From a virus (lineage: Duplodnaviria; Heunggongvirae; Uroviricota; Caudoviricetes), in IMG/VR virus record IMGVR_UViG_3300046674_000485, positions 15,734 to 79,733 of that record: DNA of 64,000 nucleotides; one strand, given 5' to 3'. Positions within the stretch are counted from its first letter, which is position 1. Every line of letters begins with the position of its first letter. A model generated the notes under the pieces. That model saw only the letters and a list, made by a program, of their open reading frames with translations, ran no database searches and was not told the origin of the DNA. This document shows, one piece after another, positions 8,217-47,300 of the stretch. The translations under genes and the position numbers were made by a program.

Positions 8217-8218
8217 CC

Positions 8219-10244: not shown

Positions 10245-10438
10245 CCAACCTCCTCCGCCCCCGCGGCCCCGCCATCTCCGACGCCGAGCTCAAGGCCCTG
10301 GCCGAACGCAACCTCGCGCGCGCCGCCCAGGCACGCGAGCGCATGGGCATCCGCCTGTGCATCCACCCGGCGAACGCGCCGACCAAGAACCGCCGGACCC
10401 CCGTCCTGGCCAGCTTCCACCACGGTCTCTTCTCGTGA
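10235..10438 (+). CDS. hypothetical protein, 67 aa
   Basis: ORF track. Confidence 0.4.
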   Translation: MHLTNLLRPRGPAISDAELKALAERNLARAAQARERMGIRLCIHPANAPTKNRRTPVLASFHHGLFS

Positions 10439-22077: not shown

Positions 22078-22153
22078 TGGGGGCTCGCCAAGTGGGAAGG
22101 CACGTGGTTTTGATCCATGCATTGAGAAGGTTCGATTCCTTCGCCCTCTGCCA
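22078..22153 (+). tRNA. tRNA-Gln (anticodon TTG), slightly non-canonical
   Basis: TGGGGGC TC GCC..GGC A CGTGG TTTTGAT CCATG CATTGA GAAGG TTCGATT CCTTC GCCCTCT G CCA; very close to E. coli tRNA-Gln; U1:U72 mismatch and 6-nt variable loop. Confidence 0.7.
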
Positions 22154-22168: not shown

Positions 22169-22244
22169 TGCGGGATAGCTCAGGCGGTAGAGCAGGGGTC
22201 TCATACGCCTCGTGTCGCTGGTTCGAGTCCAGCTCCCGCAACCA
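22169..22244 (+). tRNA. tRNA with CAT anticodon (Met elongator or Ile2/lysidine type)
   Basis: TGCGGGA TA GCTC AGGCGGTA GAGC A GGGGT CTCATAC GCCTC GTGTC GCTGG TTCGAGT CCAGC TCCCGCA A CCA; perfect 7-bp acceptor stem; encoded CCA; T-arm resembles Ile2. Confidence 0.85.
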
Positions 22245-23245: not shown

Positions 23246-23319
23246 ATCGCTGTAGCTCAGTTGGTAGAGCAGCGGCCGCAAGCCGTGTGTCGGTGGTTCG
23301 AATCCACTCAGCAGCACCA
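23246..23319 (+). pseudogene. tRNA-like element (pseudo-tRNA)
   Basis: canonical D-arm TAGCTCAGTTGGTAGAGC and T-arm GGTGGTTCGAATCCACT with CCA end; anticodon arm has a 5-nt loop (GCGGC-CGCAA-GCCGT) and a 4-5 bp acceptor stem. Confidence 0.6.
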
Positions 23320-29596: not shown

Positions 29597-30295
29597 GTGA
29601 CCACCACCATTTCCAATTTCCAGCGCACGGCCAACTGGCTGGCCACGTGCGGCAAGAAGCCCAACGGCCTGACCATGAGCGTCCAGGCCGGCGTGATGCT
29701 CGAGGAGGTCTGCGAGCTCCTCGACTCGATGACCCTGGGCTCGCCGAGCGGCATCGCTTCCAACCTCGTGAGCGAGGCCTCGCGCGTGCTCAAGGAGGTC
29801 GGCCTGCAGATGAAGAGCGGCGACTGCCACGTCTACTTCCACGACCGCAAGGCCGCCGTCGATGCCTTCGCCGACATCAAGGTGACCGTCGACGGCACGG
29901 CCTACCTGGGCGGCTTCCTGATGGATGTCGCGGACAAGAAGGTGCTCGACGCGAACGATGACAAGTTCGAAGAGGATGGACGCCCCGTGATCCTGCCGGG
30001 CGGCAAGATCGGCAAGCGCCAGGGATGGGTCGGCCCAGACCACACGGACAGCGTGGGCGAGCTGCCGCCGGTCGACGAAGAGTCGACACCCTTCCACCAG
30101 ACGACCGACGCAGCGAAGTGGGCCCGGGCCATCAAGCGCATGCACCCAGGCCTGGACGAGGGTGAGATGCTCGCGTGGTTCGCCAACGCGATCATGAGCG
30201 GTCGCGACGAAGGCAGGCAGGCAGTGTCGCCCGCGTCTGACACTGCCGCCGAGAATGCCGTCGAGGCTGGTCAGCGAGTGCTCCAGACTGCCTGA
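29597..30295 (+). CDS. hypothetical protein, 232 aa (weak MazG-like helix at N-terminus)
   Basis: ORF track; VMLEEVCELLDSM...RVLKEVG. Confidence 0.5.
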   Translation: MTTTISNFQRTANWLATCGKKPNGLTMSVQAGVMLEEVCELLDSMTLGSPSGIASNLVSEASRVLKEVGLQMKSGDCHVYFHDRKAAVDAFADIKVTVDGTAYLGGFLMDVADKKVLDANDDKFEEDGRPVILPGGKIGKRQGWVGPDHTDSVGELPPVDEESTPFHQTTDAAKWARAIKRMHPGLDEGEMLAWFANAIMSGRDEGRQAVSPASDTAAENAVEAGQRVLQTA

Positions 30296-30322
30296 GTAGG
30301 AACAACAGCGAGGAGAAGAATC

Positions 30323-30685
30323 ATGCGTCGTCGTTTTTCTGATCACCTGCCAGAGTCCACCGTCGAGATCATCCGATCGATGGAGAAGCTCAAGGGTAAG
30401 ACCTTCGCGGTGCGACTCGCTGTTTTCCTCGAGGTCATTCAGATGCGAGAGCTCGTGCACGCGTGCCGAGCCAACCCGCACGATGACCTCATCGACTATC
30501 GCGCCGATGCGATCACCGAGAGCATCGTGGCCAAGATCCTGGCCGGCATCCGTCAGGCCGATCGCGGCGACTTCGTTCGAATCGCCTCCCACCTCAATCA
30601 GCGCCGCGGCTCCCGCTTCGTGCGTGTGGATCGCTCCGGCAGCTACGCACCCAAGTACCGCAAGAGCAAGAAGAAAAAGGACTAG
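30323..30685 (+). CDS. hypothetical protein, 120 aa
   Basis: ORF track; RBS GAGGAG. Confidence 0.5.
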   Translation: MRRRFSDHLPESTVEIIRSMEKLKGKTFAVRLAVFLEVIQMRELVHACRANPHDDLIDYRADAITESIVAKILAGIRQADRGDFVRIASHLNQRRGSRFVRVDRSGSYAPKYRKSKKKKD

Positions 30686-31153
30686 ATGTCAGACCCCAAG
30701 CATCCGACCAACCCCGCCTGGGTGATGGAGGATCCACTCATCAATCCGCCGCCCCGCGGCGAAGAGCTGCTGATGGTGAACAGCGGCGGCTCCCTCATCA
30801 AGGGCCTCTGGGATCCGACGTGCATCGCCTGGAGCCGCAAGCCCAAGGTGCCGCAGAGCGTCAAGGACCGGATGACTGCTGCCGTCCTGGCGCGTCAGCT
30901 GCGCCAGGATGTCTCGCTGTTCAAGGTGGGCGACGTCCTCGAGACCGACTACCACAGCCCGTGCGGCGCGAGCGCGCACATGCAGCTCACCCAGCACACG
31001 CTGCTCGAGATCCGCCAGGGCCAGAGTCAGACTGGCCTCATGTTCCGCGTGCACCCGCCGCTGAACAAGGACTACCTCTACCCCTCCGGCGTCGCGCCCG
31101 AGGACCGCGGCTGGATCGACGCCGCGTGGTTCCGCCGGGTGCTGCCGGCATGA
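30686..31153 (+). CDS. hypothetical protein, 155 aa
   Basis: ORF track. Confidence 0.5.
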   Translation: MSDPKHPTNPAWVMEDPLINPPPRGEELLMVNSGGSLIKGLWDPTCIAWSRKPKVPQSVKDRMTAAVLARQLRQDVSLFKVGDVLETDYHSPCGASAHMQLTQHTLLEIRQGQSQTGLMFRVHPPLNKDYLYPSGVAPEDRGWIDAAWFRRVLPA

Positions 31154-31341
31154 GCCTCAACTACGAAGTCGTCACCTCGCTGGGCGACCAGATGATCCTG
31201 CAAGAGGTGTTTGCCCCAGGCATCGAGGAGAAGAGCTACGCGCTGTCCCGCGCGATCACCAACCTCCGCGATCAGCAGGTGCGCGAGGCCCTGATCGCGT
31301 TGGGCTGGACCCCTCCCCCGCCGGGCTGGAGGCCGGCATGA
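31150..31341 (+). CDS. hypothetical protein, 63 aa
   Basis: in-frame ATG 31150 (ATGA overlap) of ORF 30820..31341. Confidence 0.4.
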   Translation: MSLNYEVVTSLGDQMILQEVFAPGIEEKSYALSRAITNLRDQQVREALIALGWTPPPPGWRPA

Positions 31342-31541
31342 AGGTCGCCCTGGTCGTCCTGGCTCTGCTCCTGGCAGGGTGTGGCAAGAGCGGCGGCAAC
31401 GAGCACGCCGTCTTGCTCGACAAGGGCTGCGTCTTCAAGTCGCGTGGCGCCGTCGGCAAGGCGTGCAGCCGCTACGGCTGCCGCGATGTCATCGGCACCA
31501 CCTACAGCTGCCCGGCCTACGAGGCCTCGGTCGCTGACTGA
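31338..31541 (+). CDS. small lipoprotein, 67 aa
   Basis: signal peptide with lipobox LLAGC; ATGA overlap. Confidence 0.5.
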   Translation: MKVALVVLALLLAGCGKSGGNEHAVLLDKGCVFKSRGAVGKACSRYGCRDVIGTTYSCPAYEASVAD

Positions 31542-31576
31542 GCGAAATTTTTTCCCGCAACCACAACCATAACCAA

Positions 31577-32467
31577 ATGAACTTCTCTTTCCTCAAGCCC
31601 AAACACATCATCAGCATGGTCGGCGCGCTCATCGCGCTCATCTTCCTGCTGGCCGTCAATCCACTGCACACGGTGCCCACCGGCTACCGCGGCGTGATCA
31701 CCCAGGGCGGCCGGATCCTGGGCGTCGAGCCCGAGGGCTTCGTGCTGGTGGCGCCCTGGCAGAAGCTGACGATCTTCAATGTGCGCGCCGAGGCGGCCAA
31801 CGTCCAGAACGCCGACGGCGCGACGAGCGACACGCAGCCCGTGACCACGAGCCTGACCGTGCGCTACAGCATCTCGCCCGACAAGGTGGCCACGGTCTTC
31901 GAGCAATACAGCCGCGACGGCAACCTCGACAGCTACATCATCACGGCCACGAACGAGACGTTCAAGTCGGTCACCGCGCGCTTCACGGCCACCGAGCTGA
32001 TCAGCAAGCGGCAGATGGTGTCGAACGAGATTGCCGGCCTGCTGCGCACCAAGGTTTCGATCTACGGCGCCCAGGTCATCAACATCGACATGACCGAGTT
32101 CAAGTTCTCGCCGGACTACATGAAGGCGATCAACGAGAAGGTGACCCAGGAGCAGCTCAAGCAGGCCGCCGACAACAAGTACCTGACGGTGCAGTCCGAG
32201 CAGAAGCAGAAGGTCGCCATCGCCCGGGCCGAGGCTGATGCCGTGCAGGCGCGCGCCGATGGCGAGGCCTATGCCCTGACCAAGGTGGCCACCGCCCAGG
32301 CCGACGCACTGAAGATCCAGAACGCCGCCCTGGCCCAGAACAAGGACGTGCTCGAGCTGCGCCGCATCGAGGTCGCCATGGAGCAGGCGAAGCGCTGGAA
32401 GGGTGATGTGCCGACCAGCGTCTACGCCGGCGCCCCGATCCCCTTCCTGAGCGTCGACAAGAAATGA
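31577..32467 (+). CDS. SPFH/band-7 (prohibitin/HflC-like) membrane protein
   Basis: N-terminal TM helix; YRGVITQGGRILGVEPEGFVLVAPWQKLTIFNVRAE SPFH core; C-terminal coiled coil. Confidence 0.8.
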   Translation: MNFSFLKPKHIISMVGALIALIFLLAVNPLHTVPTGYRGVITQGGRILGVEPEGFVLVAPWQKLTIFNVRAEAANVQNADGATSDTQPVTTSLTVRYSISPDKVATVFEQYSRDGNLDSYIITATNETFKSVTARFTATELISKRQMVSNEIAGLLRTKVSIYGAQVINIDMTEFKFSPDYMKAINEKVTQEQLKQAADNKYLTVQSEQKQKVAIARAEADAVQARADGEAYALTKVATAQADALKIQNAALAQNKDVLELRRIEVAMEQAKRWKGDVPTSVYAGAPIPFLSVDKK

Positions 32468-32721
32468 TGGAGCTCGGGCGTTCGAGGGGGAGCGGCGCCC
32501 GCCTGGGGCTGATGCTGGCCGCCCTGGCCATGGCCGGCACGGCTCCGGCCATGGTCTCCAACATGCCCTCACTCCGCAGCGCGGGGCCGCGCCGCCGCCG
32601 ACCGCCGACGCCAGCAGCGGTGGTCCAGCGCCGTCGCGAGACCAACGCCGAGATCGCCGCCTGGAACGCCTCCGTCCAGGCGCGGCGCGACGCCAAGCTC
32701 GCGGCCCGGCGCGGTCGGTGA
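32464..32721 (+). CDS. small Arg-rich membrane-associated protein, 85 aa
   Basis: ORF track; ATGA overlap with the SPFH stop. Confidence 0.4.
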   Translation: MMELGRSRGSGARLGLMLAALAMAGTAPAMVSNMPSLRSAGPRRRRPPTPAAVVQRRRETNAEIAAWNASVQARRDAKLAARRGR

Positions 32722-32763
32722 GAATGGGCGCTCGCTGCCGGCGCCCGCAATAGACCACCTACC

Positions 32764-33085
32764 CTAGATACCCTATCTAGGGTAGCTACTCGAGATAGTC
32801 TAGATACCCTAGATAGGTTATCTAGCCAATGTATTGGATGTATTGACGATACATTGAATAGCTATCACGCCGTCGCTCCGGACAGGCCTCAACCCCCGGT
32901 GTTACCCCGGGGCCGATGTGGCGGCGGCGTGATGGATCCTGTTGGCTCTCCAATACATTTCATACATACGATACATCGTGTAGCTACGATAGGTATCCTA
33001 TGAATTAATGCTCCTCTATGTATCGTATCTGTTGGATGGTCAATAGATAGTGTTGACAGGCTATGGATTGCATGTATCCTATGCA
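32764..33085. repeat. iteron/centromere-like repeat field upstream of parA
   Basis: five CTAGATA/TATCTAG half-sites at 32764-32825, including CCCTAGATACCCTATCTAGGG; ATACAT x3 at 32953-32976; GTATCCTATG x2; AT-rich for this genome. Confidence 0.6.
33053..33080 (+). promoter_or_regulatory. parA promoter
   Basis: TTGACA 33053-33058, 16 nt spacer, TATCCT 33075-33080, overlapped by a GTATCCTATG repeat; AGGAG RBS. Confidence 0.6.
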
Positions 33086-33113
33086 GCGTCTAAACGTTAC
33101 ATACAGGAGCGCC

Positions 33114-33806
33114 ATGGCCAACAAGATCATCCTCGTCGGCAGCGAGAAGGGCGGGGTGGGCAAGACCACCGTCGCCTTCAACCTCGCCACCATGCGGGTC
33201 AAGCAGGGCAGGAGCGTCCTGCTGCTGGACGCCGACAGCCAGGGCAGCTCCGCCATGTGGGCCGGGCTGCGCAGCGACGCCGAGTTCCAGCCGACCCTGG
33301 TGTGCGTGCAGAAGTCGGGGAAGATCGGCCGCGATCTGCTCGAGCTGAGCAAGACCTACGAGATCATCATCGACGCCGGCGGCCGCGACTCCGTCGAGCT
33401 GCGGCAGGCGATCGCCGTCGCGGACCAGTGGATCATCCCGGTGAAGGCTGGCCAGCTGGACCTGTTGTCGATCACCAAGATGCGCAACCTGAAGCGCGAG
33501 GTCTACGAGCGGGTCGAGCAGACCCCCGAGACGCGCGTGCTGCTGAACGCCATCGCGCCGTCGACCAGGGAGGGCGAGGACGCCCGGGCCGCGCTGCTGC
33601 AGCAGAACGAGGGCGAGGAGGCTGGCGGGGCAGGGGACATGCCGGTCATGTCCGCCATGCTGACCGACCGCGTGGCGGTGCGCCGCTCGATCACGCACGG
33701 CTGCGCGGTGGTCGAGCTGCCAGCCAGGGAGAACGCCGGCGCCGCGGTGGCCGAGTTCAAGAGCGTGTTCGAAGAAGTCTTTGGAGAGAGCTATGTCGAG
33801 GCCTAA
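33114..33806 (+). CDS. parA: ParA/MinD-family partition ATPase
   Basis: deviant Walker A KGGVGKTT; LLLDADSQGS; IIIDAGG; in-frame ATG 33114 of ORF 33063..33806. Confidence 0.85.
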   Translation: MANKIILVGSEKGGVGKTTVAFNLATMRVKQGRSVLLLDADSQGSSAMWAGLRSDAEFQPTLVCVQKSGKIGRDLLELSKTYEIIIDAGGRDSVELRQAIAVADQWIIPVKAGQLDLLSITKMRNLKREVYERVEQTPETRVLLNAIAPSTREGEDARAALLQQNEGEEAGGAGDMPVMSAMLTDRVAVRRSITHGCAVVELPARENAGAAVAEFKSVFEEVFGESYVEA

Positions 33807-34251
33807 GCTGACTGTCCAGGCGCCGAGCGCCGAGGAGATGGCGCGCCGCCAGCAGAGCGCGCTCCAGGCCGTCGCCGTGGCCACTGGCAAGAGCGAGGTG
33901 CTCGACAAGCTGGAGCAGTGGACCGAGGAGCCGGCCGCCGCCCTGGCGCCCGCGGAGCCGGCCCCGGTAGCCGCCAAACCGCGCCGGGCGAAGACGGTGA
34001 AGGGTGGGGCAGGGGAGGTCGCTGCGGAGGCGCCTGCGGCCCCGGAGCCGCCGCCCAGGCCGAAGCGCCCCTGGGAGGAGCCGAGCCCTGACGCGACGCA
34101 CCCCTACCACGTGATCCTGTCGGAGCGCCTGTTCCGGAAAATGGACTTCGCCTGGAAGCGCAAGGGCTACAAGAGCGCGCGCGAGTTCACCCTCATGGCG
34201 CTCGAGGCGGCCGCCGATCAGGCGCTGAAGGAGCTCGGGGAGGCGCCATGA
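33793..34251 (+). CDS. ParG/ParB-like small partition protein (C-terminal ribbon-helix-helix)
   Basis: ATG 33793 overlaps the parA 3' end; Pro/Ala-rich linker; C-terminal YHVILSERLFRKMDFAWKRKGYKSAREFTLMALEAAADQ. Confidence 0.5.
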   Translation: MSRPKLTVQAPSAEEMARRQQSALQAVAVATGKSEVLDKLEQWTEEPAAALAPAEPAPVAAKPRRAKTVKGGAGEVAAEAPAAPEPPPRPKRPWEEPSPDATHPYHVILSERLFRKMDFAWKRKGYKSAREFTLMALEAAADQALKELGEAP

Positions 34252-34814
34252 CCGAAGGCGAGCAGCAGGAGCTGGACCTCCAGGCTGAATACGGGTGGTT
34301 CCACGTCATGCGGCCCAGGATCCTGAAGGGGCTCCTGGCCGAGGTCGGCGAGACCGCCTGGGCCGTCTACACCGTGATCAAGTGCCACGCCAACCACCAC
34401 ACCGGCGTGGCCCACCCGAGCCAGGAGACGATCGGCCGGCTGATCGGGAAGTCCACCGAGACCGTCAGCCGGGCGACGAAGGCCCTCATCAAGGCCAAGC
34501 TGCTGACCGAGACGGTCAGAGGCAGGCACAAGGAGTACACCATGCTCGAGTCCGCGCCGGTCGTTGAACGCACCTCTGGCACCCCGCACGGGGCCGCCGA
34601 GTGGCAGTACGTGCCGAAGGAGTTCGGCGCCCAGGTGGCCGCGCTGAAGTCGTTCATCGAGAACGGCATCGATCTGCCGAGCGGCATCACCCTGAACCTG
34701 AACGTCACTCTGATCCAGCAGCGCGACCATGGGTCGGTCACGGTGAACATCGACCCCGGCGTGGCCCAGCGCGCCGACATGCAGGCCCTGGTGGCCAAGC
34801 TCAAAGGCCTCTGA
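34248..34814 (+). CDS. winged-helix DNA-binding protein (possible plasmid-type Rep/regulator)
   Basis: ORF track; HTH IGRLIGKSTETVSRATKALIKAKLL; lies between the par genes and the DnaA-box region. Confidence 0.5.
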   Translation: MTEGEQQELDLQAEYGWFHVMRPRILKGLLAEVGETAWAVYTVIKCHANHHTGVAHPSQETIGRLIGKSTETVSRATKALIKAKLLTETVRGRHKEYTMLESAPVVERTSGTPHGAAEWQYVPKEFGAQVAALKSFIENGIDLPSGITLNLNVTLIQQRDHGSVTVNIDPGVAQRADMQALVAKLKGL

Positions 34815-34854
34815 TCTCGCACTGCCTAATTAACGGGCATCCTGAAAAGCGGCT

Positions 34855-34995
34855 TTCTTCTTTCTTTAATTCTTATACCTCTCGTTGTTCCCACATGGAC
34901 GAGGGGTATTTATCCACAATCACCCGCACCCGTGCGGTGTATTGAATTTTCGGCCGTCGAATTGTGAACATGTAATCCACTGTTTCTGTGGATAA
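34855..34995. other. putative DnaA-dependent (plasmid-type) replication origin
   Basis: perfect DnaA boxes TTATCCACA 34910-34918 and TGTGGATAA 34987-34995 in inverted orientation; AT-rich TTTCTTTAATTCTTATACC 34861-34880; GCACCCGTGC palindrome. Confidence 0.55.
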
Positions 34996-35054
34996 CTTTT
35001 CGCAACACAATAACTGTTATGTCAAATTGGACCCGGAGAAGCTGTTGAATCGCC

Positions 35055-35100
35055 AATGAAAAAAGAGGGTCGCTTTTACCCCTTTCGGGAAGCGACCCTC
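35055..35100 (-). terminator. rho-independent terminator of the virion operon (minus strand)
   Basis: 11-bp stem GAGGGTCGCTT/AAGCGACCCTC; on the minus strand the hairpin is followed by TTTTTTCATT. Confidence 0.65.
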
Positions 35101-35116
35101 CATAAACTCTAACCCA

Positions 35117-35311
35117 ATGCTATTGCTCACCGTCGCCCTGGTCGCCTTCATCGGGTTCTTCGCCCTGTTCCCCGACAAGGTGCGGGCCATCAAGGATGGC
35201 TCCGGCACCGTCGTCGGGTGGCTGGTGGCGATCGGGGCGGCAGGCTGGGTGATCGGCGCGCTGCTGCAGCTGGCCCGCTACGGCACGATCACCACCCCCT
35301 GCTGCGGCTAA
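35117..35311 (+). CDS. possible small two-TM membrane protein, 64 aa (uncertain)
   Basis: ORF track; GC3-rich; weak RBS; convergent and stop-overlapping with the giant gene. Confidence 0.3.
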   Translation: MLLLTVALVAFIGFFALFPDKVRAIKDGSGTVVGWLVAIGAAGWVIGALLQLARYGTITTPCCG

Positions 35312-38300
35312 TAGATCGCCTTGGCGTTGTCGCTCTGCCGGTCGCGGATCGCCTGGATGCGGTCACGCTTCTCGGCCGGCGACGCGGCGCTGCGCTCGAT
35401 GTCGTGGATCGACTGGTTCGCCTTGGCCTGGGCCTGCTTGACGTGCTCCACCTTGGTGTAGCGCGCGAGCTCCTCGGCGTGGTCCTTGGCGAACGCCTTG
35501 GCGTCCTCGGCCTTCCCCTCCTTCATCAGCTGGCGGTGCGTGGCGTAGGCCTGCTCGAGCGCCTTGGCCTGCTCGTAGACCGAGCTCACGTACTTGGAGC
35601 TGGGCTCCGGCAGGCTGCGCACGATACCCTGGGTCACGACCCGCAGGTAGTCCGCCTCCGGCCGGGTCGGCTCGTTGGTCATCGGGCGGATGGCCATGTC
35701 CGCGCCCGACACCACGAAGGTGCCGAGCCAGCCGAAGTAGCCCTTCAGCAGTGAGTCGATCTGCACCGGGCTCAGGCCCTCGGCGCCGACCGTGCTGGTC
35801 ACCGAGTTGAGCGCCGTGCTCGCCGCGCGCGCCACCATGCTGGTGCCCGAGTTGTAGCGATACTCCGACTTCAGCTTCTCCATGCCGGCCGTCTCGATCG
35901 GGCGGCCGGTGAAGGCGTCCTTGTTCGAGTAGACGTCGATGATCGGCTTGACCGCCTGGGGGATCGGGTTCATCGACAGGTTGTCGCTGGCGATGTGCAG
36001 CAGCCGGTCGCGGAAGCGCGTGGCCGTGAACTCCTTGTTCGTGAACAGCTCCACGCCGCGCTCGGCCAGCGTCGCGATGGCGCCGATCTCGAATGGCTTG
36101 GGGATGCGGAACGCGGTGCCGCCCAGCTTGAACCACCAGAAGCCATCGCGGTCGAAGTCCTCGCGCTTCTTCCAGTCCTCGTCGTCGCCGTACGCGGCCA
36201 TCAGGGCGACCGACACCAGGGCGACGGCGCCCGTCACCATGGCGAAGCGGCGCGGATCCTCCTGGGCTGCACGGCCCAGCTTGTACAAGCCCTGCAGCCG
36301 GGCGTTCATGAACGGCACGACCTGGGTCAGGAACCGGATGCTGGCCCAGGTGCCCTGCATCGAGAAGTCCATCAGGTCGCGCGCCATCAGCGACGCCTCG
36401 GCGTGGCCGACGCCCTGCTTGCGCAGCTGGCTGTAGAGCGCCGAGCGGTTGATCTCTTCGCCGCGGTTGCCGATCTCGTGATAGGCCTGGACCGCCGGGT
36501 CGACGAACTTGTCGTAGAAGGCCTTCACCTTCTCCGGGTTGTTCAGGATCGTCGACTCCTTGACGCCGCGCTTCACCAGCTGGCGGATGCGCTCGGAAGC
36601 GTTGCCGTCCATCATGGTGCCGAATCGGATCAGACCGCCGCTGGCCAGCGCGGAGACGTACTCCTGGCTGTCGCGGGCCGAGTGCTTCAGGCCGTCGGCG
36701 ATGTTCTTCACCGGGTTGTAGGAAAGGCCGCTCGTGCCGATGGCCTGGATCGTGTCGCGGATCAGGTTGCGCACCTTGAACGCGGGCGACGCCGTCACGC
36801 CGGCGGTGAGCCAGTGCTTCATGGTCGACAGCGCGTCCATCAGCGGGCCCTTCAGGCCGGCGTATTCCAGGCTGTTGATCGCGGCCAGGACGTAGGGATC
36901 CTCGACCAAGAAGTGGCGCTGCTTGCCGCCATCCATGAACCAGACGACGCCGTTCTTGTTGCCGGTCGACTTGCCCATCTCGCGCACGGCATCCTCGCTC
37001 GCCTCGATGGCGACGCCGACGTTCTGCGCTGCCTCGAGGGTCGCGCGCGCGGCGCGGTTCTTGGCCGCCGCGTCGATCAGGTGGGACCAGTTCTGCAGCG
37101 TGTTGGACAGCAGATCGGAGCTGAGCTTGTCCTTGCCGCCCTTGAGCTTCTTGAAGGCCTGCTGGCGTGCGATGCCGCCCTTGATCTTCGAGCCCATGAA
37201 GGCGCCATCCTCTTCGCTCACGCGGTAGAAGGGCACGTAGAACTCGCTCTCCCAGAACTTGCGCGCCTCGCCGTCGATCAGGCCGCTCTGCTCGGCCATG
37301 TCCATCGTGTTCTTGTTGAACTCGTTGAACTTCTCCAGGCTGTCGCGGTAGGCCGCGGCGCGGTCGGTGGTCGTGCTGCCATCCTGCATCGTGTACGGGC
37401 GGGCCAGCTGGCCGTCGGCGAGCGACTTGCCGGCTGCGATGTCCTCGGCCGTGAAGAGGTGCTCGCGGTCTTCCTTGGACAGCTTCTCGGCGCGGTTGGC
37501 CGCGATCCACTGCATGAAGTCCTCGAGCTCGGCGCCCAGCGGGTTGCCGACCTTTTCGATGAAGCCGCCCGTCATGTCGGCGTCGTAGGCGTTGTCCACC
37601 AGCTTCAGCTTGCCGTGGTGCAGCAGCGCCTCGAACGCGCCGGCCGCACCCTTGGACAGGCGCGCCAGGGTGTAGGCCTCGCCGCCGAGATCCTTCAGCG
37701 GGCGGAATTGGTCGACGAGGCCCTGGGCCATCTTCTTGCCGATGTCCTGGCGCGCCTCCTTCAGGCGCTCCTTCAGGCTCTTCTCTTCGGTCGTGCGGCC
37801 GATGTTGCGGAACATCGCCTCCTGCTCTGGCGTGTAGGCGCGGCCGCTGTGGCCGGTCGTGCGCTCCTTCGAGAACAGCGGCGCGCCGCCCTCGAGCTGC
37901 TCGCGCATGGCTGGGGTGATGTCGATGGCGAGCTGATTGGCTGCTGCAGCTGCAGAGTCTTCAACCTCCTCTGCAATCCTGTAGGTGCTCTCGCCATAGT
38001 CGTCATCCTCCTCGATGGCTGACAACTTGGCTTCGGCGGCGGCGCGGCTGTCGACCTCGGCAACCCAGTCGACATTGCCCGTGTCGTTCCAAACCTCTTC
38101 GATGATGTACTTGGTCTTTTTTGCGCCGACGCTTGTCTCGCCCACCTTCCCGCCCAGCTTTTTCGCGAGGTCGCGTGCCACCTGGGGGACGATGCCATCG
38201 TAGAAGGCCTTCATGCCTTCACCGCCGACTTCGAGCTCGACGCCGCTCAGGATGCGCTGGCTGTTCATGTCGCGCTTGGTGTCGAGCAGCTTGCGGGCGA

Positions 38301-41300
38301 CTTCCTTGCCGATGATGTCATCGAGCTCGCTGTCGCTTTCAACCTGCTTCTTGAACACGTTGGCGCCATCCTTGCGGGCGACCAGCGTCTTGTCATCGTA
38401 GTAGACGACCTGATCAATCTGCTTGCGCAGGCTGTACAGGTCGGCCGCCTGCTTGCCGTTGATGAAGGCCACCTTGTCGTAGTCGCCGCGCGCGGCCTCG
38501 ACCAGGGCGCGCTTCATGGCCAGGGCGACCCAGCTCTTGGTGTCGGCGACGAAGGGGCCGGCTGGCGCGCCTTTGGTGAGTTCCGATTCGCCATACGTGC
38601 GGTGCGCTTTCTTCAGCGCCAGGGCGTCGTCGTCTGCGTGCACGAAGCCGATGACGTTTCCGGCCACCACCACCTCGTAGGTGTCCTCGTCGTCCGTCTC
38701 GTCAGTGCTCTTGCGCACGGTGACATCGAGCTTCTTGGCGAAGCCGATCCTCTTGGCCTGCTGCCCCCAGTCGGACTGGATCTCGTTGACGAACAGCACC
38801 TTGTTGCCGTCGGCATCGGTGCGGTCGTCCAGGCGCAGATGCGCCAGGATGTTCTTCTGGTCCCAGTGGCCGGAGGTGTAGGGCTTTGGCCGGTCTGGCA
38901 GGCTCTTCATTTCCTTCACCGCGGCGACGTTCTCTTCGTCGGTGAGATCAACCCACCGCTTGCCGAAGAGGCGCTTGGCAATCGCGTCGGTCGTCGAGTC
39001 GTCCGGCAGCGTGATCAGCACCTCGCGGTAGTTGTCGCCGCCGGGCACGGTGTACGTGGCGTACTTGGTCTCGACGGTCTCGGGGCCGTACTTATTGACG
39101 GCGTCCTTCAGATGTTGCGGCAGATCGCGGTAGTCGATGTCCTCGCCATCGGGGTCGATGAAGTGGGCGGCATCGCCATAGTCATCCACGGCGATCTTGT
39201 AGCCGGTGCCGGCGAAGGCTTCGCGCATGGCTGCGTCCTTGCTTGGGTCGCGACCCAGCACGGTCTCGCCAACCTGCACGCCGTTCTCGTCGACCCAGGT
39301 GGCGAGCTCGTCCTTCGAGATCTTGTCGCGGCCGCGCATCTTGAGCATGTCGAAGACGCCCGACCACTCGAGCTCGTCGGCCTTCACGCCCATCTTGCCG
39401 GCGTTGGCCTTGAGCCACTGGGCCCAGGCCGGCGCGGCCTGCGTCGCGAGGCGCTCGGGCACGGCGGCCAGGGCGCTCGAGAGCTGGCTGTAGTAGATGC
39501 CGCGGTCGGCGCTGCGCTTGGCATCGCCCGCCTGCAGTCGCTCCCACGCCAAAGCAGCCGGGCCCGTCAGCGTTTTGGGGTCGACCTTTTCCTGCGTGCC
39601 CCACTTGCGAAGCCCGTACACATCAGGGCGACCCAGGCTCGGCACTCCCTGCGTCTTGTCCAGCGCGATGCCACCCTTCTTCAGGATGGCGGCCGCCCGA
39701 TCGAAGTCCATCTCGCCGCCGGCGGCGCTGTCATCGATCATGGTGCGCAGATCGGAGGCGATCTTCTTGTCGTCCGTTTCCGCGGGCCACTTGCCGGCGC
39801 GCTCCAGGCGCGACAGGTCGTTGGCCGCAATCTCGATCAGGTTGGGGCCCGACAGCACCTCGGTGCGGAATGGGCGCGTCGGCGCCAACCGGCTTCGCGG
39901 GTACTTCTTGTCGAGAGCTTCGAACGCGGCGAGGCGCTCTGGGCCCGCCGGGATCTCGTTGGCCGCGGCCCAGTCGGCACGCGACTCGCGGTCGGCGGCG
40001 GTCTGCAGCTCGTCGTCCCAGACTTGGCCGAACTGCACGTCGCCAGCCCCCAGCTTCACCCGGAACGCGTGGATCGCGCGCTCCTTGGTGGGGGCGTACT
40101 TGAGGTACGCGCGCGCCTGCTTGACGGCGCGCTCGGCCTCCTCGGCATCGCGTGCCAGATAGCCGTACAGGCCATTGCCCAGCGGGCGGATCTGCATGCC
40201 GCCGGCGCCCTCGCCCTTGCCGAGGTAGCCCGCATCGAGCTGATCGAAGTCGCTGCCGGCGTGGATGATGAGGTGCTCGCGCTCGGCGCTGAACTTCACG
40301 CTGGCGTCGGGGCGCATGAACTTCTCTTTCAGCTCGGCGCGGTGGGCCCACGAGATGGGCGTCAGCGTGCCGGTGAGGAAGCCCTGCTCGGCCTTGTCGT
40401 GCGCCCAGCGCTGCGGGGTCGCGAACAGGCTCGTGAGCGGCTTGGCGTCGTCGGTGGTGCCCACGTAGTAGACGACCGGCACGCGCTCGACGCCGGCCTT
40501 GGCCAGGGCCATCATGCGGTGGCGGCCCTCGTGGCCGGTGACCTTGAACGAGCCGCGCATCGGCGAGTCATCCTCGATCTTGCCCTCGAGGAAGATCTCC
40601 TGGCTCTGCTTCTTCAGCTCGGCCGCATCCAGGGGCGTCGCCTCGCTCTCCAGGCGCGCGCGCTCGGCCGCCGGGGTGGTGGCCGCCAGGAAGTCCTTCG
40701 GGCTCACCCAGCCGGCGTAGGCCTTGGTGCGGTTGTCGTCCTGGGTGTAGGCGTACTTCGACATCAGCTGGTCGATGCGGTCGCCATCCCAGGCGGCGCG
40801 GTCACGGCTGCGGGTGATGTCTTTCTTCGACGGGTCGAAGCCGCCGTCGTTGCCGATGGCCGACTTCACCTGGGCCGACTCGAAGGCGACGAAGACATCG
40901 CCATGCGTCGCGTCGCGGAAGACGACGCCGTCGTGCCCGGCGCGCTTGAGCTGCTCCCACAGGGCGCCCTGGGCCTTCTTGTAGTTGGACGCGTACTTGA
41001 TGACGTCCGGCCACTCCGCGTAGACCTTGGGATTCTGGATCGACAGGTAGACCGGGATGACCCGGCTGGCCGTGTTCTTGGGGACGTACTTGCCGCCCTC
41101 GAAGATGTGGCCCATGCTGTCGTTTTCGACGGCGTACTGGGATGCGCCCTCGGTGCTGTCGGTGAACCAGATGCCGTTCTTCGGCGCCTTGAAGGACTTG
41201 AAGTCGACGTCGGCCGAGGTGCCGGTGTAGACGACCTTGGGCTTGCCGTCAGCGTCGACGATCTTCGATTCGCGGAACCACGCCTTGAAGGCGGGCGTGC

Positions 41301-44300
41301 CAGTGCGATCGGCCGAGCGCGTAATGTCGGCCTGGGCCGGATCGAAGGCGCCGCTGTTGCCGGTGGCGCTCTTGATCTGGGTCGGATCGAAGGCGATGAA
41401 CTCGTTGCGACCGTGGTTCATCAGGCCGTCGTAGCCCAGGGCCTTCAGCTCGGCGACGTCATCCTCGGTCAGGAAGGCCGAGGACGTCTTGTCCGAGAGC
41501 ATCTTGTTCAGGCGGTCGAGCCGCTTGCCCATGCCGAGCACGCGAGCCACCACAGCCTTCACCTTGCCGACCGGGTCTTGGTCGATCACCAGCGGGTGCT
41601 TCAGGGACAGGTAGACCGGCATGACGTTCGCACCGTCGCGGCCACCGTAGACGGCTGCATAGCCGGGCGATGGGCTGAAGTAGAAGCCGTGCGTGTAGGT
41701 CGGCTCGCCCTTCTTCGCATCCAGGCTGAACTGCGAGAAGTCGCCGCTGGTGCCGTGATAGACGACGAGCGGCTTGCCCTGGTCGTCGACAACCTTGCTG
41801 TCGCCGAACCAGCGCTTGAACTCGGGGGTGCCGGTTACTCGGTCGCGGGAGAGGCGAGCTTCGCTGCCTGGACCTTGATCCTGGCCAGCTTCTCCGGATG
41901 CTCCCGGTTCACCTTGTCGAAGTGCGCCCGGGCCGCGGCCATCCGCTGCTCGCGCTCGGCCGGCGTCGGCGGCGGCACGCGTGGCCGCGAAGGTGTTCCA
42001 GTCGAGTTTTCCGTCATACGCTGCTCCGTCTTCGAGGTTCTGTTGAGGAATGCCCACCCGCTCCCAGAAGCCGCGGGCCTCGGTCACGATGTTGGACACA
42101 TCCAGGGTAACATTTTGTTGGCTGGCCAGCAAGGTTTTGATGGCGCGGACGCCGACGCCCTTGGAGCGCCCTTCCTTGTTGACCTCGATGTCGTAGAGCG
42201 CCTTGAGCTTTCCGTCCACGAACAGCAGATCGGTGTAGCCCAGGAACTCGCCGGTGGTCGGCTCGACCAGCTGCAGCTGGTACATCTTCTCGCGGCTCGG
42301 GTCCGCGGGGATGTAGTCGAAGCGCTCGGTCGGGTTGCCGTAGCCGATGAAGAGGTCGTGGCTGGAGAACTCCGGCGCGCCGGCCTCGTCGATCTGGGTG
42401 TCCACCTGGGGGCGCTCGATGGAGCGCTTGGCCGCCGGCAGGCTGCCCTGGCGCGCCTTCTCCGGCATGGCTGCGATGAAGTCCTTCATCGGCTTGTCGA
42501 CCTTGCGGTCGCCGGTGAGCGAGAACTCGACCGGCAGCAGCGCGGCCTTCTGGCGCGCGAAGCCGCGCTCCTTGGCCGACAGGGACTGGTCCAGGCCGCT
42601 GCGGAAATTGACCCAGCTGTTCTGGCCGCGGGTCTCCGACGTCAGCGCCCAGCGCGCCCAGGGGTTGGACGTGGTGGCCATGTGGTTCTTCCAGGCGGCC
42701 TCCTCCCCCTTCGGGCCGAACTGGGTCTCGCTCATGCCGTGCGCGAAGTAGTCGTGCACCGTGCGCAGCAGATCGTTCATCAGCAGCGGCGTGCCGTTGA
42801 CGTCCTCCAGGCCGGTCTGCTCGAGCAGCGGGTGGCCGGTGAAGTCGACGCCCTCGGGCCCGAACGACTCGGGGCCGGTGCCGTAGACGAACATGTGGTT
42901 GTTGTCGAGGATGTCCTGGCGCATGCCCTTGGAGTTGGCATAGGGCTCGCCGTCGCCCTTCCAGATCTCGACCTTGATCGGCAGCGCCTTGAACTGGGTG
43001 ACCAGCTCCTTGGCCAGCTCGGTGTAGGCGCGCTTGACCTGGGGGCGCTTCAGGTCGTTGTCGGGCAGCGCCTCGTAGGCGTCGCCGATCTCGCGCTGCA
43101 GGGCGGCCTGCTCGGGCGAGACCTCCGCGGCCTGTTCGAAGGCCTTGACCTTCTCCTGGCCGTTGAGGTACTCGGCTACTCGGCGCGCGGTTTGGCTTGC
43201 GGCCGACGGCCCTGGGGCAACGTCGCCACGAATTCGTTCGTATCCGATTGTTCCTTCACCGTGACCGTATGGCCAGAGGCGCGCAACCGACTGTTCAGAT
43301 CCAGAGCTGCTTTTTCCAAGGCGTTCAGCGGCTCGCTCGATGGCTTGCTTGAAGGCACTGATTTGTTCGTCATTGTTGACATCTCCAACGTAGTAAGCCT
43401 CGACGAAATCATCGCCGAACGTGAGCCCGTAGAGACCCGACTCGTCGATCACCTTCTGGATCTGCTTGGCGGTCAGCGCCTGCTTCAGATCCCAGCGATA
43501 CGACAGCGTCGCGTACGAGCCATCCTCGAACACGGTGCCCAGCTTGGCCGTCGTCGGCTTGCGCACATGCACCTGCTCTTGATTGAAATTATCCGCGAAC
43601 TTCGCCAGAGCCGCCAACACTTTGTTGGAGTCGTTGTCGGTGAACGTCACGGTCATGCCCAGCGACGGCTCCGAGGCGCCGCCGTACAGGCCGGTGCTGC
43701 GGTCGACCACCAGCTTGGCGGAGGTGCCGGCCATCAGGTGGCGCAGGCTGTCCGCGGCGATGTCCTGCAGCAGCGCGTGGGCGAACTTGTCGCCCTTGCC
43801 AGCCTTGACGTACAGCTCGGCGATGCCGGGGATGCTGTTGGTGGCGGCCGACAGGGTGACCGAGATTCGGTCCTTGGTGTCGGCGTTGGCCAGGATCCGC
43901 GCCTCGCGGTCGGCCGGGTTGTCGGCGATGGCCGAGTTGAACGACGTCGCGCCATCGGCGGCGAACGAGCCGGCGTCGGATCCCTCCCAGGCCATCGGCT
44001 CCATGCCGCCGGCCATGTTGAAGATCTCGTTGCGGGCCTCTGCGCGCGAGAGCTCGCCGGCCTTCACGCGGTCCCAGACGGCGCTGACCTTGGGGGCCAG
44101 CTGGCTCTTGCGGGCCGCCGGGAACAGTGCGCGCACCGCCTCCCAGGTGATCGACTGCATCTCGCGCGGCAGCACGTTGCGCTTGGCCGCCGCGTCGCGG
44201 TAGGCGTCGGCGAACAGGCCATAGCTGCCGCCGGCGCCGGTCTCGGCATTGCTGCCGGCCGTGCCGAAGTTGTCCTTGACCTCGGGCGTGTTGCCCGACA

Positions 44301-47300
44301 GCGCCTTCACCAGCGCCGCGGCGATCGCGTGCGTGTCGATGGTGACGTGGCCCTGCTCGCTCTGCGGCGCCACGATGTTGTTGTAGAAGTTGCGCACCTT
44401 GTGCTCGCCGCCGAGCATCTTGTCGATGTTCTTGACGGAGCCGCTGCGCAGGATCGAGACGGCCTTGCCGATGGTGCTGAAGCCGCCCCAGGTGATCGAG
44501 CTCTCGCCGTCGTCGTTCTTGGTGACGTAGTCGCCGAAGCCGCCCTCGGGCGTGATCAGGCGGTAGCGGCGCTCGAAGTAGGTCTCGTCGAAGATCCGCG
44601 TGAAGCGCGCGGCATCCTCGAGGTCCATGCTCTCGAGCGTCTCGCCCTCCAGGCGCTTCGCATCGGCGATCAGGCGCGCGCGGTCGTCGCGGTCCTTGAC
44701 CGTCTTGGCGGCGCCGACGTAGCTCTGCACCCAGGCGGTCATGTCCTTGGTCCACACCTCGCGGCCGCGGTTGCGGTTGATGTCGATGACGCGCTCGCCC
44801 AGGCTGACGTTCTTGAACCAGTCCATCTGCGGGCTGAGCACGGCCAGGACGCCGGCGGCTTGGCGCTCGGTGATGTCGTACTTCGTGGTCCAGTCGTTGG
44901 CGATGCGGTTGGCACCGTCGTACCAGAGGCGCGCGCGCTTGGAGATGTCGGCCGGCACGAGGTCGTGCAGCCACAGCAGGTTGTCGACGACGACCTCGTG
45001 GAGCTCGGCCATCAGCTTCTTCGGGTTGCCCTTGCCCGACAGCGTGTTGTAGGTGCGCAGGGCCTTGGCGATCGCGTCGACGTGGCGCTCGGAGGCGCGG
45101 ATGTCGTCGCCGTCGATGACCCAGTTCTCGGTGTAGCTCTTGTCCTCGGAGCCCTTCGCGCGCGGCACCGTGGTGCTGAGTTCGATGCGCGACTCGGGGT
45201 CGGTGAAGTCTTCGCGCTGGCGGGACTGGGTGATGTCGCCGGACGCGCCGTCGAACTCGCCGTTGTTTCCGGTGGCGCTCTTGATCTGCTCCGGATTGAA
45301 GGCAACCCAGTCGTCGCGGAGGTCGCCGAAATCCGTGTCGCTGTCTCGGATGACGATGCCATCGTTGCCGGCTGCCTGCAGCGCCTTGCGCAGGGCGGTG
45401 GCCGAGCCGGCCTTCTTCAGCGCACTCTCGAACGCGTCGTGACCCTGGTATTCCTTGGGGGACTTGATGGACAGGAAGACATCCATGACGCGCGCTTCGC
45501 CACCGCTTTCCTCGGCAGCATCCACCGAGAAACTGATCGCGGCGCTGCGTGCGTCGGAGTCGGCAAGTTCATGCTCGTCGCTGCTGGCTGCGGCGGCTGT
45601 GAACCATGCGCCGATGTCGCCAGGGTAGTCGGTGCCCTCGCGCCCGGTGCGGAACTCGGAGAGATCCACGGCGGTCCCGTGGTAAGCCACCAGCGGCTTG
45701 CCGTTGGCGCCCACCGCCTTCGAGTCGCCGAACCACTTGTCGAACTCGGCAGGGGTCTCGCGCTCGGCGCTGCGGCGCACGGCCATGCCCTCGGGGACGA
45801 CGGGCTCGCTGCCGGCCGCCACGAGCGCCTTGTTGATGTCGTCGCGGCCCACCAGGGTCGCGGTCGTGCCTGGGCCCTGCGGGTGGTCGTCGAAGGTGAG
45901 CGTCGCGCCGCGGCCGCTGGCCTTCGTGATCATGCCCTCATTGTCGCCCTTCTTGGCGCGCTGGCCAACGAGCTGGTCCTTGATGTGGCGGAGGTCGCCG
46001 GCCACCGCTTCAGGGCGATAGCGCTTCCAGAACTCGAAGGCGTCGTCGCTCAGCGAGATGGCGGGCTTGAGCTGCTTGCCGGCCTTCTCCTCGATCTGCG
46101 CGTACATCTGGCGCGCGATGCCGCGCTGGCGGTAGTCTGGATGGACGGCCGACTCCATGATGACGAAGTCGCCGTTCGAGTCGTTCCAGGCGTGGGCACG
46201 ACCGACGACGCGCTTGCCGACCTTGGCCACCGCGGAGTCTTTCATGCCGCCCTGCTCGACGACAACCGCCTTGCGCGCGGCGCTCTGCTTGGCCTGCTCG
46301 ATCTGCGCCTGCATCTCCGGCTGGCTCAGACCCTGGTCACGCACGTAGTCGGCCACCGCGGTGGTGAACGCGGCGCGGATCTCGGCCATGTTGTCGACCA
46401 GCTCGGCCGACTTGTAGTTGCCCTGGCGGATCGTCTTCGTCAGGCGCTCGAGCGCGCCGTTGATGAAGGCGGCCAGCTGGGCGATGATGCCCTGCGCCTG
46501 GGCGCCGTTGTCCTGGCGGATCTTGGCGAAGACGTCGTTCCAGAACGAGCCGTCGGTCATCAGGTCGCCGCCCAGGTCGGAGGTGACCTCCTCGAGGACG
46601 GAGCCCTGGTCGTAGCCCAGGTCGGTGTAGACCTTGCGGGCGCCGGTCTTCAGGCGCGCAGCCACGACCGCCTCGAGCGCAGCGTGCGCCTTCGGGTTGT
46701 CGGCCTTCAGCTGGTGCATGAGTTCGTGCCCGAACACGGCCAGCGGCGAGATGCCGGTCGCTTCGTTCAGGTAGATCAGGCCCGACGCGCCAGGGACGAC
46801 GAAGCCGTCGCCCACAGTGTTGCTCGGGTCGCTGAAGAACTCAACCTTCTTGCCGAAGAGCGCGCCGATGCCGCGCAGCATGGCGGCCTGGGCCTTGGTC
46901 ACGCGCAGCGCCTTGCCGCCGCGGGCAGCCGATGCGGTCTCGGGCAGCTCGCTGGCGCGCACGCGCTGGAGCTCGAGCTGCTTGCCGTTGACGTTGATGG
47001 TGAAGTGCTGGGCGCCCGGGGCGATCGGCTCCGGCGCAGTCATCACCACCGGCGCGGCCGGCTTCTTCGAGGTCTTCGGGTTCTTGGCCCAGGCCTTGAA
47101 CTCCTCGACCGTCATCTGGGTCACGGCGCGGCGGCGGCGCGGGCCCGAGCCATCGCTGAAGTGGGCGTCGTAGATCTTCTCGGCCTGGGCCTGGGTGGTC
47201 ACGCCGACCACAGCCTTCACCTCGTCGAACGAGCCGTCGTCGTTGTACTGGTCGAAGACGAACACCGGCGCGCCGTGGCGCGGGTTCGGCGCGACGTAGA

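Follow-up and report, generated by a model that had tools for sequence, protein, structure and literature searches.

The question raised by the virus sequence analysed here, 64,000 nucleotides of IMG/VR record IMGVR_UViG_3300046674_000485 (positions 15,734 to 79,733; hereafter the window), is how the prophage of this temperate-looking phage is maintained. At 32745-35060 of the window lies a 2.3-kb cassette of three genes (parA, a small open reading frame termed ORF2, and the gene of a winged helix-turn-helix, or wHTH, protein) flanked by two cis fields. A preliminary description of the sequence saw in this a plasmid partition and replication module, present beside a lambda-like O/DnaC replication module, and that view has held: the cassette is kept in ten instances, is found on a circular plasmid, and sits here in the slot where related phages have their integrase. 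We consider it most likely, with a probability of roughly 0.68, that the cassette is a self-contained, horizontally mobile plasmid-maintenance module and that the phage persists as an extrachromosomal prophage.

Three genes and two cis fields conserved as a unit

Searches with the wHTH protein found 24 close relatives in metagenomes, and wherever their context was available the same trio was present, ParA and wHTH genes with the small ORF always between them. An exhaustive hidden Markov model (HMM) search brought the family to 295 cluster representatives at E≤1e-10, nearly all of 185-250 amino acids (aa); a pattern scan for it returned none in 185,579 species genomes nor in IMG/VR, and a relative occurs in just one of about 50,700 GenBank phage records. 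Ten independent cassettes share one layout. The phage backbones that carry the cassette number five at the least: L001, a phage-like contig of 108 kb; L002 and L004, which have genes for DnaB, primase, ligase, CobT/CbbQ and PhoH; L013, a T7-like contig in which the cassette is just upstream of the gene of a 1024-aa single-subunit RNA polymerase (5176-10438 for the two together); L016, a contig with DNA polymerase A; and L113, which encodes a DUF927 primase-helicase and, like the window, a giant protein. Such joint conservation of genes and cis fields across ten diverged cassettes supports the reading of the cassette as a plasmid module. In L013, repeated CTAAGAGTA-like motifs lie between the cassette and the T7-type RNA polymerase gene.

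The cassette is also carried by a plasmid. On Polaromonas plasmid pA29BJ2, a circular 104-kb molecule of catabolic and accessory genes, tblastn located the trio, in the same gene order, at 3514-5130, at the start of the record; no other Rep and no phage genes are annotated there. Its wHTH protein is homologous (36% identical) to that of the window, and the block of dyads and three DnaA boxes downstream of it is shared. A more distant trio of the same gene order and with a homologous HTH protein (26% identical and longer, at 248 aa) is found on the 75-kb Acinetobacter plasmid pRBH2-3, where the neighbouring genes are phage-like, and in phage vB_IME_Ab2712, both of them phage-plasmids; this version has one DnaA box, about 1.2 kb away. 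At the nucleotide level, a megablast search with 30000-38000 found no match among GenBank phages or PLSDB plasmids, and an Rfam search of 30000-36000 nothing credible.

A 1.4-kb contig from a second metagenome (L020, JGI sample 3300046475) encodes a protein identical to ORF2 (taken there to start at Met16), with the gene of a 230-aa ParA on one side and the beginning of a third gene on the other. Because the identical ORF2 comes from another sample, the phage or its cassette must recur across samples.

The cassette occupies the integrase slot of related phages

Next to the cassette, in the late operon, lies the gene of a giant, 5074-aa virion protein. A search with its C-terminal 500 aa returned 85 related phage and prophage loci, the closer of which, where a host is named, are mostly from Betaproteobacteria. 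None of the 85 carries the cassette. In four of them, 59-64% identical to the window over these 500 aa (L031, L033, L030 and L034), the giant gene is followed directly by that of a tyrosine integrase, and in L033 then by a MazG homologue; it is at this same junction that the window has the cassette. A cassette with a repeat-array centromere and a DnaA-box origin where relatives have an integrase leads us to think that the phage is most likely maintained as a plasmid. Mobile DNA seems to insert at this junction repeatedly: in L028 (11961-13340) and L088 (11733-12992) an IS605 OrfB/TnpB (Cas12f1-like TNB) gene is found at the same place, and neither integrase nor cassette.

HMM scans of all predicted genes of at least 170 aa in the 64 kb, the 5074-aa protein included, found no integrase, serine recombinase, transposase or protelomerase. 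The earlier statement that the window has no integrase is thus borne out for these genes, and the P1/N15-style lifestyle then proposed is supported in its core, a plasmid partition and replication module on a temperate phage; a protelomerase of N15 type was found in none of the scanned genes.

Past the last DnaA box of the cassette there is a candidate XerCD-type site. Its XerD-arm-like 11-mer, TTATGTCAAAT, begins 22 nt beyond the box, matches the XerD arm at 10/11 positions; no other place in the 64 kb matches with 2 or fewer mismatches. Behind the cassette the same 11-mer, letter for letter, recurs in L001 (11365-11403), L004 (5204) and L113 (6577), in flanks otherwise unrelated, and variants of it follow in L013 (6959) and L016 (11113); in L001 it completes a full dif-like site, TCGCATAA-TATTGA-TTATGTCAAAT. 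On the XerC side of the window's site, a better match to the 8-nt core (2 mismatches) requires a 9-nt centre. From its sequence the 11-mer may be part of a multimer-resolution site or of a site of the type used by integrative mobile elements exploiting Xer (IMEX).

The latter option belongs to a different reading, in which the phage integrates as prophages ordinarily do, with an integrase gene in the 21.5 kb outside the window or with integration left to XerCD at the dif-like site 35000-35027, with the ParA cassette as passenger or remnant. We judge this quite improbable. It draws on the conservation of the 11-mer by the cassette and the full site in L001, on the examination of 64 of 85.6 kb, and on the presence of ParA-like genes in integrating phages, exemplified by many distant ParA matches in Burkholderia phages; it has to contend with a cassette standing at the very junction that holds the integrase in relatives, with cassette genes and cis fields that are intact, overlapping and under selection, with the weakness of the window's XerC arm, and with 64 kb of sequence containing no host genes or att-like junctions.

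Arrays of 9-bp units surround a putative parA promoter

The two intergenic fields of the cassette have GC contents of 0.49-0.51, against about 0.68 in the surroundings, and are the only strong GC troughs nearby. The field upstream of parA had been described as containing five CTAGATA/TATCTAG half-sites, a longer repeat in two copies, and the parA promoter. All of these are there: CTAGATA/TATCTAG occurs 5 times, GTATCCTATG twice (at 32993 and 33074) and GATACAT/ATGTATC 4 times, and a sigma-70-like site, TTGACA-16-TATCCT, is located at 33053-33080, 34 nt before parA. The motifs prove to be fragments of a longer periodic order with a 9-bp unit, TAnnTAnnn, of which about 38 in-phase copies fill 32753-33102 as two arrays, A and B (Table 1), around an 80-nt GC-rich island; the promoter-like site lies inside array B.

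The periodicity is strong by each measure used. TAnnTA was observed 13 times against 1.6 expected, its spacings nearly all multiples of 9, with the phase kept from 32765 to 33098 across the GC-rich island; three tandem TAnnTAnnn units gave 10 matches here and none elsewhere in the 64 kb, with 0 expected; and autocorrelation at lag 9 reached z=7.9. In each of the five homologous cassettes so tested the lag-9 z was 5.3-9.6, and GATACAT/TAnnTA-type units are found upstream of parA in relatives' cassettes as well. The pA29BJ2 cassette is periodic too (lag-9 z=3.7), with what appears by eye to be a different, GTAAAGAC-like repeat motif. Array A of the window includes a perfect 12+12 palindrome, CTACCCTAGATA-ccc-TATCTAGGGTAG, at 32759-32785. 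The island can fold at -43.3 kcal/mol (z -2.9); GC-rich islands also split the arrays in L001, L002, L004 and L016, that of L016 being structured (z -3.6) and that of L001 not.

Many short repeats upstream of parA, overlapping a promoter-like site, are a feature of type Ib centromeres, and we propose that the 9-bp arrays are both centromere and operator. We rejected the idea that this field consists of iterons for a Rep protein: the unit is 9 bp, there are about 38 copies, and they surround the promoter. The label "iteron field" given to it earlier is accordingly withdrawn in favour of a type Ib-like centromere/operator array, the candidate Rep-binding repeats being instead the dyads next to the DnaA boxes.

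A small ParA and a putative partner

The window's ParA, predicted before this analysis to be a small type Ib protein, fits that class well. At 230 aa it carries a deviant Walker A motif (KGGVGKT; GSEKGGVGKTT) and has no N-terminal HTH domain; it matches PF13614, PF01656, PF10609, phrog_164 (1e-37) and, over its full length, NF041546 (4e-34), and its closest PDB relatives are ParA 5u1g and ParF 4dzz. Among homologous cassettes ParA is 51-64% identical. ORF2 overlaps parA by 14 nt and the wHTH gene overlaps ORF2 by 4 nt; three overlapping genes behind a promoter-like site in the array should therefore form one operon.

ORF2 is the least readily classified of the three. Neither Pfam, PHROGs and NCBIfam nor PDB profiles gave a match to it; comparison by hhalign with manually entered ParG and omega sequences was negative or insignificant; and the only Foldseek match, ParD, was insignificant at E=5.8. 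The alignment of seven orthologues reveals a common basic N-terminus, M..RPKLR..RQ..L.EWTEEP (MSRPKL...RQ...LEQWTEEP in the window), a Pro/Ala linker of highly variable length, and a conserved C-terminus, THPYH[IV][IV]L.ERLF.K.DFVWKR.GYKSAREF (in the window, THPYHVILSERLFRKMDFAWKRKGYKSAREF...), for which the AlphaFold2 (AF2) monomer model, of low confidence, gives two helices. It is plausible from this sequence pattern that ORF2 is built like a type Ib centromere-binding protein, and its strand-helix-helix spacing would fit a ribbon-helix-helix (RHH) fold. The RHH partner of the preliminary description is plausible from a conserved gene of the right size following parA and from this spacing; HMM, PDB and Foldseek searches gave no significant RHH match.

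A wHTH protein beside a candidate DnaA-dependent origin

The third gene was expected to encode a winged-helix protein and does so: its product matches PF13730 (HTH_36) at 2e-8, and AF2 models a confident wHTH at residues 17-99, the conserved C-terminal half being modelled poorly. The winged-helix region weakly matches PHROG replication-initiator families; Foldseek matches are to generic ArsR/MarR folds only. We considered and rejected a Rep_3 (PF01051) double winged-helix initiator of the kind found in the iteron replicons of pPS10, F, R6K and P1, since PF13730 alone was detected and there is one confident wHTH. Plasmid Rep proteins with HTH_36 have been described on E. coli pKL1 and on Paracoccus pAES1, pAES7, pMARC3 and pMOS2 (PMC3832669); their origins adjoin the rep gene and contain iteron-like repeats, about two in number, with which inverted repeats overlap in some cases (PMC3832669; PMC4224046). 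From the sequence and setting of the gene we infer that the wHTH protein is an origin-binding, Rep-like initiator.

The setting in question is the field downstream of the wHTH stop codon. Two perfect 9-mer DnaA boxes in inverted orientation beside an AT-rich tract had been noted there, correctly: boxes R1 and R3 (Table 1) are the only perfect ones in the 64 kb. Nine aligned cassettes share one order of elements: AT tract, TCTC.T, dyad, GGGGTATTTATCCACA, second dyad, TTATCCACA-N5-TGTGGATAAC; the origin block of L113 is of the same design. Every aligned cassette has an equivalent of the AT tract; the TCTC.T and GGGGTATTT blocks are invariant or nearly so across the nine; R1 is kept as GGGGTATTTATCCACA in 6/9 and departs from it by one or two mismatches in another two; and the inverted pair TTATCCACA-N5-TGTGGATAAC is kept in L002, L004, L013, L010 and Polaromonas. 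In ten loci, 17 perfect DnaA boxes fall within 230 nt after the wHTH stop and 0 in the remaining 161 kb. Such conservation of a non-coding block among cassettes whose proteins are merely 49-65% identical argues for selection.

Instead of a 17-22-bp direct-iteron series, then, we observed two dyads (three in pA29BJ2) with conserved DnaA boxes and an AT tract. Dyads of CCGCAC..GTGCGG type are near-identical in the window, L004, L016 and, in duplicate, L113; at the same position L013 has a CCGGGG..CCCCGG dyad, and at the same positions Polaromonas has three copies of CCCTTA-N4-TAAGGG. Symmetry is retained, that is, while sequence changes between lineages, a pattern to be expected of sites for a dimeric binder encoded by the cassette, yet one that a hairpin would give too.

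The same data can be taken to describe a three-component cassette serving partition only. The wHTH protein would then be the centromere binder, like AspA of pNOB8 or TubR of type III systems, and ORF2 an adaptor that activates ParA through its N-terminus; the role of the DnaA boxes would be regulatory, coupling expression to the cell cycle or roadblocking transcription at the convergent junction, and the prophage plasmid would depend for its replication on the O/DnaC module or on some other origin of the phage. TubR is indeed the best PDB profile match of the wHTH protein, whose fold is of a generic repressor type; ORF2 has no demonstrable DNA-binding fold, the phage already owns an initiator and a loader, and an invariant gene trio suits a three-part machine. 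Even so we hold this to be unlikely. In pNOB8 the gene order is aspA-parB-parA, unlike that of the cassette. The strictly conserved cluster beside the wHTH gene, composed of AT tract, DnaA boxes and dyads, has the anatomy of a classical origin; on the 104-kb non-phage plasmid, which has no other annotated Rep, the cassette is the sole visible maintenance module; and Rep proteins with HTH_36 are documented (PMC3832669).

Table 1. Features of the cassette and of the surrounding phage genome (window coordinates)
Feature	Position	Strand	Description
Array A	32753-32860	+	12 consecutive 9-bp units, CTAGATA-type; proposed centromere/operator
GC-rich island	32861-32940	+	between the arrays; long inverted repeat, 16-bp stem
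Array B	32950-33102	+	about 17 9-bp units, GATACAT/TAnnTA type, in the same 9-bp phase as array A
parA	33114-33806	+	230 aa, small Walker-type partition ATPase, ParF/type Ib class
ORF2	33793-34251	+	152 aa, putative centromere-binding/ParA-adaptor protein
wHTH gene	34248-34814	+	188-aa HTH_36 winged-helix protein, conserved C-terminal domain; proposed Rep-like initiator
T/AT-rich tract	34853-34877		CTTTCTTCTTTCTTTAATTCTTATA; candidate DNA-unwinding element, read from the sequence
First dyad	34878-34906		conserved CCTCTCGT ... ACGAGGGG, abuts R1; first origin-proximal repeat copy
DnaA box R1	34910-34918	+	TTATCCACA, perfect
Second dyad	34924-34937		CCGCAC-CC-GTGCGG, second origin-proximal repeat copy; proposed wHTH-binding site
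Inverted DnaA-box pair R2/R3	34973-34995		boxes 5 nt apart
DnaA box R2	34973-34981	+	TAATCCACT, degenerate, 2 mismatches
DnaA box R3	34987-34995	-	TGTGGATAA, perfect
Candidate XerCD-type site	35000-35027	+	XerD-arm-like TTATGTCAAAT at 35017-35027, weak XerC-like arm before it
Hairpin	35065-35100	-	perfect 11-bp stem and T-run; late-operon terminator, right boundary of cassette
Left block	10.7-20.9 kb	-	Q-like antiterminator, DnaC-like loader, O-like initiator, RNase H (HMM scans)
DnaC-like helicase loader	15075-16079	-	phage replication module 15075-16869
O-like initiator	16063-16869	-	phage replication module 15075-16869
Early block	21-32.5 kb	+	repressor-like HTH gene, three tRNAs, RecT, exonuclease, SSB, MazG, SPFH protein
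tRNA-Gln (TTG)	22078-22153		in lower-GC stretch after repressor-like gene
tRNA-Met (CAT)	22169-22244		in lower-GC stretch after repressor-like gene
tRNA-Cys (GCA)	23246-23319		in lower-GC stretch after repressor-like gene
Late block	from 35.3 kb	-	5074-aa polyvalent virion protein, then tail-fibre, internal-virion and SU10-adaptor genes
5074-aa polyvalent virion protein	35308-50532	-	SLT, inorganic pyrophosphatase, GNAT, several ART-PolyVal, DUF7178 and LPD38 domains

The phage that carries the cassette

The window has a GC content of 67% and its genes are arranged in four co-oriented blocks. HMM scans identify the backbone as that of a temperate, lambda-organised podophage, with virion genes only distantly similar to those of Stx-type, Ralstonia and Burkholderia podophages. 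The cassette is at the convergent junction of the early-left operon and the late operon. Tail, internal-virion, adaptor, O/DnaC, Q-like, repressor-like and RecT genes thus share a molecule with the ParA cassette, as in a phage-plasmid.

The lambda-like O/DnaC module reported earlier, the second of the two replicons then proposed, is secure, at 7e-62 for phrog_2509 and 3e-62 for phrog_50. The origin suggested to lie inside the O-like gene fared less well. Two GTCCGC...GCGGAC (GTCCGCAT..ATGCGGAC-type) dyads are there, at 16478-16500 and 16785-16806, as is a purine-rich (AGAGA)n/AT tract at 16440-16470; a genome-wide search with the dyad pattern gave no enrichment. With two sites only, the resemblance to a lambda-type in-gene origin is weakly supported.

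Some of the backbones that bear the cassette, namely those with a T7-like RNA polymerase (L013), DNA polymerase A (L016) or DnaB, primase and ligase (L002 and L004), are of types usually virulent, and none of the family was found in the 185,579 species genomes. These facts would suit a cassette that has nothing to do with lysogeny and acts during infection or in a carrier state of phages of any lifestyle, ParA positioning phage DNA, or the DnaA boxes and wHTH protein titrating or redirecting host DnaA in takeover or pseudolysogeny. In the window, though, the cassette replaces the integrase of relatives in a genome with temperate features (repressor-like, Q-like and RecT/exonuclease genes), and it resides on a plain plasmid as well; two or three boxes would be too few to titrate DnaA effectively. 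On the L002 and L004 contigs its partner is a 170-aa cI-like HTH_3 gene (HMM-tested), which stands directly upstream (5730-6245 in L002, 1304-1816 in L004) on the cassette strand, opposite to the lytic genes, an arrangement that looks like a compact lysogeny island. A role in infection or a carrier state rather than in lysogeny seems to us highly improbable.

In L004 a CopG-like RHH_5 gene (4502-4711) is found directly downstream of the cassette, again on its strand and opposite to the lytic genes, and L021 has genes of the same length at the same positions as the flanking genes of L002 and L004, a correspondence by length and place only. A toxin-antitoxin pair next to the cassette was considered and rejected: the partner of the L004 RHH_5 gene belongs to no family, and the window has nothing equivalent.

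Two further genes deserve mention. An H-NS-like gene is present in the phage (6551-6907, minus strand), and H-NS genes occur also near the cassette in L001 (6055-6474) and on pA29BJ2 (22946-23290); this co-occurrence could reflect xenogeneic silencing tied to an episomal lifestyle, or be coincidence. A 62-aa ORF (35123-35311, plus strand), apparently with two membrane spans by its sequence, has 4 nt in common with the giant gene, at the latter's stop; because it is conserved, at 54% identity, in L028, the closest backbone relative, it belongs to the phage backbone rather than to the cassette.

How the cassette would work

Taking the cassette as a plasmid-maintenance module, we infer an extrachromosomal state, and with it the binding assignments, the firing of the origin and the function of the Xer-like site, as follows. 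The two in-phase 9-bp arrays would act as centromere and operator around the parA promoter; ORF2 would coat them by way of its conserved C-terminal module, repressing the embedded promoter, and its basic N-terminal peptide would stimulate the small, ParF-like ParA, which would segregate the copies over the nucleoid. Host DnaA would bind R1 and the inverted pair R2/R3, and the HTH_36 protein the dyads that flank R1; together they could open the adjacent AT-rich tract for theta replication once per cell cycle. The XerD-arm-like site beyond the origin block may resolve dimers, and lytic replication would be driven by the O-like/DnaC-like module.

Several points weigh against this scheme. Of the 85,564-nt source contig, 21.5 kb lie outside the window and could hold an integrase. 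The best PDB profile match of the wHTH protein, TubR (E=0.006), is a centromere binder; the wHTH protein has no match to a curated Rep family in Pfam or NCBIfam, and its generic wHTH domain is the only part that models confidently. ORF2 matches no RHH profile or structure and its AF2 model is of low confidence. As to the DNA sites, small hairpins or terminators would account for the dyads equally well; of the window's two dyads one is clean and the other divergent, and there is no classical direct-iteron series; and the window's XerC arm is poor (4/11 by eye with a 6-nt centre). Finally, the PLSDB annotation of pA29BJ2 is incomplete, and a Rep could hide among its hypothetical proteins.

Comparison with known systems

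In its small ParA without N-terminal HTH the cassette resembles the type Ib systems TP228 ParF/ParG/parH, pSM19035 delta/omega and pB171 par2. Those systems have, and the cassette appears to share, a small downstream partner with a flexible N-terminal tail, and an upstream short-repeat centromere that is also an operator overlapping the promoter. Their repeat units are of 8 bp (parH) or 7 bp (omega heptads), here of 9 bp (TAnnTAnnn); the partner here has no detectable similarity to ParG or omega, and a third gene is always present.

The proposed scheme follows the logic of P1 (summarised also in PMC7157519), where a single phage genome combines a plasmid origin, partition and multimer resolution with a second replicon for lytic growth. 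P1 has a DnaA-dependent plasmid origin (repA/oriR), parA-parB-parS, Cre/lox multimer resolution and a separate lytic oriL; its ParA is of type Ia and acts with an HTH ParB, its RepA is of Rep_3 type, its direct iterons are of 19 bp, and the recombinase is its own. No homology of the cassette proteins to the P1 system was found in Pfam and NCBIfam scans.

Among actinobacteriophage prophages of the RedRock kind, Dedrick and colleagues are said to have found in 2016 that the par cassette occupies the slot of relatives' integration cassette. RedRock, Alma, Miko and others are temperate and have a partition cassette in place of an integrase (Wetzel et al. 2020, PMC7157519), to be compared here with a partition cassette and no integrase among the scanned genes of the 64 kb; mycobacteriophage parABS prophages lack an integrase and have two parS arrays of 8-bp repeats and a prophage-specific origin (PMC7157519). 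As proposed here, the prophage-specific origin of the RedRock type lies next to the par genes and is distinct from lytic replication. The RedRock centromere has 8-bp units, 8 repeats, in two arrays, compared with 9-bp units, about 12 and about 17 of them, in the window; the host phylum and all proteins are unrelated, and where RedRock-type phages have a ParB partner and a RepA- or RNA-based origin, the cassette has a 152-aa unclassified partner and, as putative origin, a DnaA-box cluster with an HTH_36 protein. The replication modules of pKL1 and the Paracoccus plasmids are, to judge by their description only, alike in combining PF13730 with about two repeats next to the rep gene; they are described without a conserved DnaA-box cluster or a fused ParA operon.

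Plasmid prophages with par and rep functions are thus known, in P1, N15 and the actinobacteriophage parABS group (PMC7157519). What is new, relative to annotated families and to the literature we found, is the combination of 9-bp arrays, an unclassified ParA partner, an HTH_36 protein and an origin of dyads and inverted DnaA boxes, spread over unrelated backbones. A bolder interpretation would have the cassette be a portable "plasmidisation kit", complete with centromere, ParA, adaptor, initiator, origin and Xer site, that moves among unrelated phage lineages (T7-like, DNA-polymerase-A and DnaB/primase backbones included) and plasmids and turns its recipient into a low-copy episome, with the wHTH family as previously unrecognised initiators cooperating with DnaA; we put this forward tentatively, with more doubt than conviction.

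Implications

Phage-plasmids are probably under-counted, their maintenance modules being hard to recognise; two of the three proteins of this cassette have no annotated family. Its components (a ParA gene, a small ORF, an HTH_36 gene, GGGGTATTTATCCACA and an inverted DnaA-box pair) provide a searchable signature by which plasmid prophages, in this case most likely betaproteobacterial, would be recognised in metagenomes. Should the cassette replicate alone, it would be a compact, DnaA-dependent, self-partitioning replicon for high-GC proteobacteria. The exchange of integrase for cassette at one junction is a clean case of lifestyle change by module exchange, and its occurrence on T7-like contigs suggests that phages of groups generally regarded as strictly lytic may persist as episomes.

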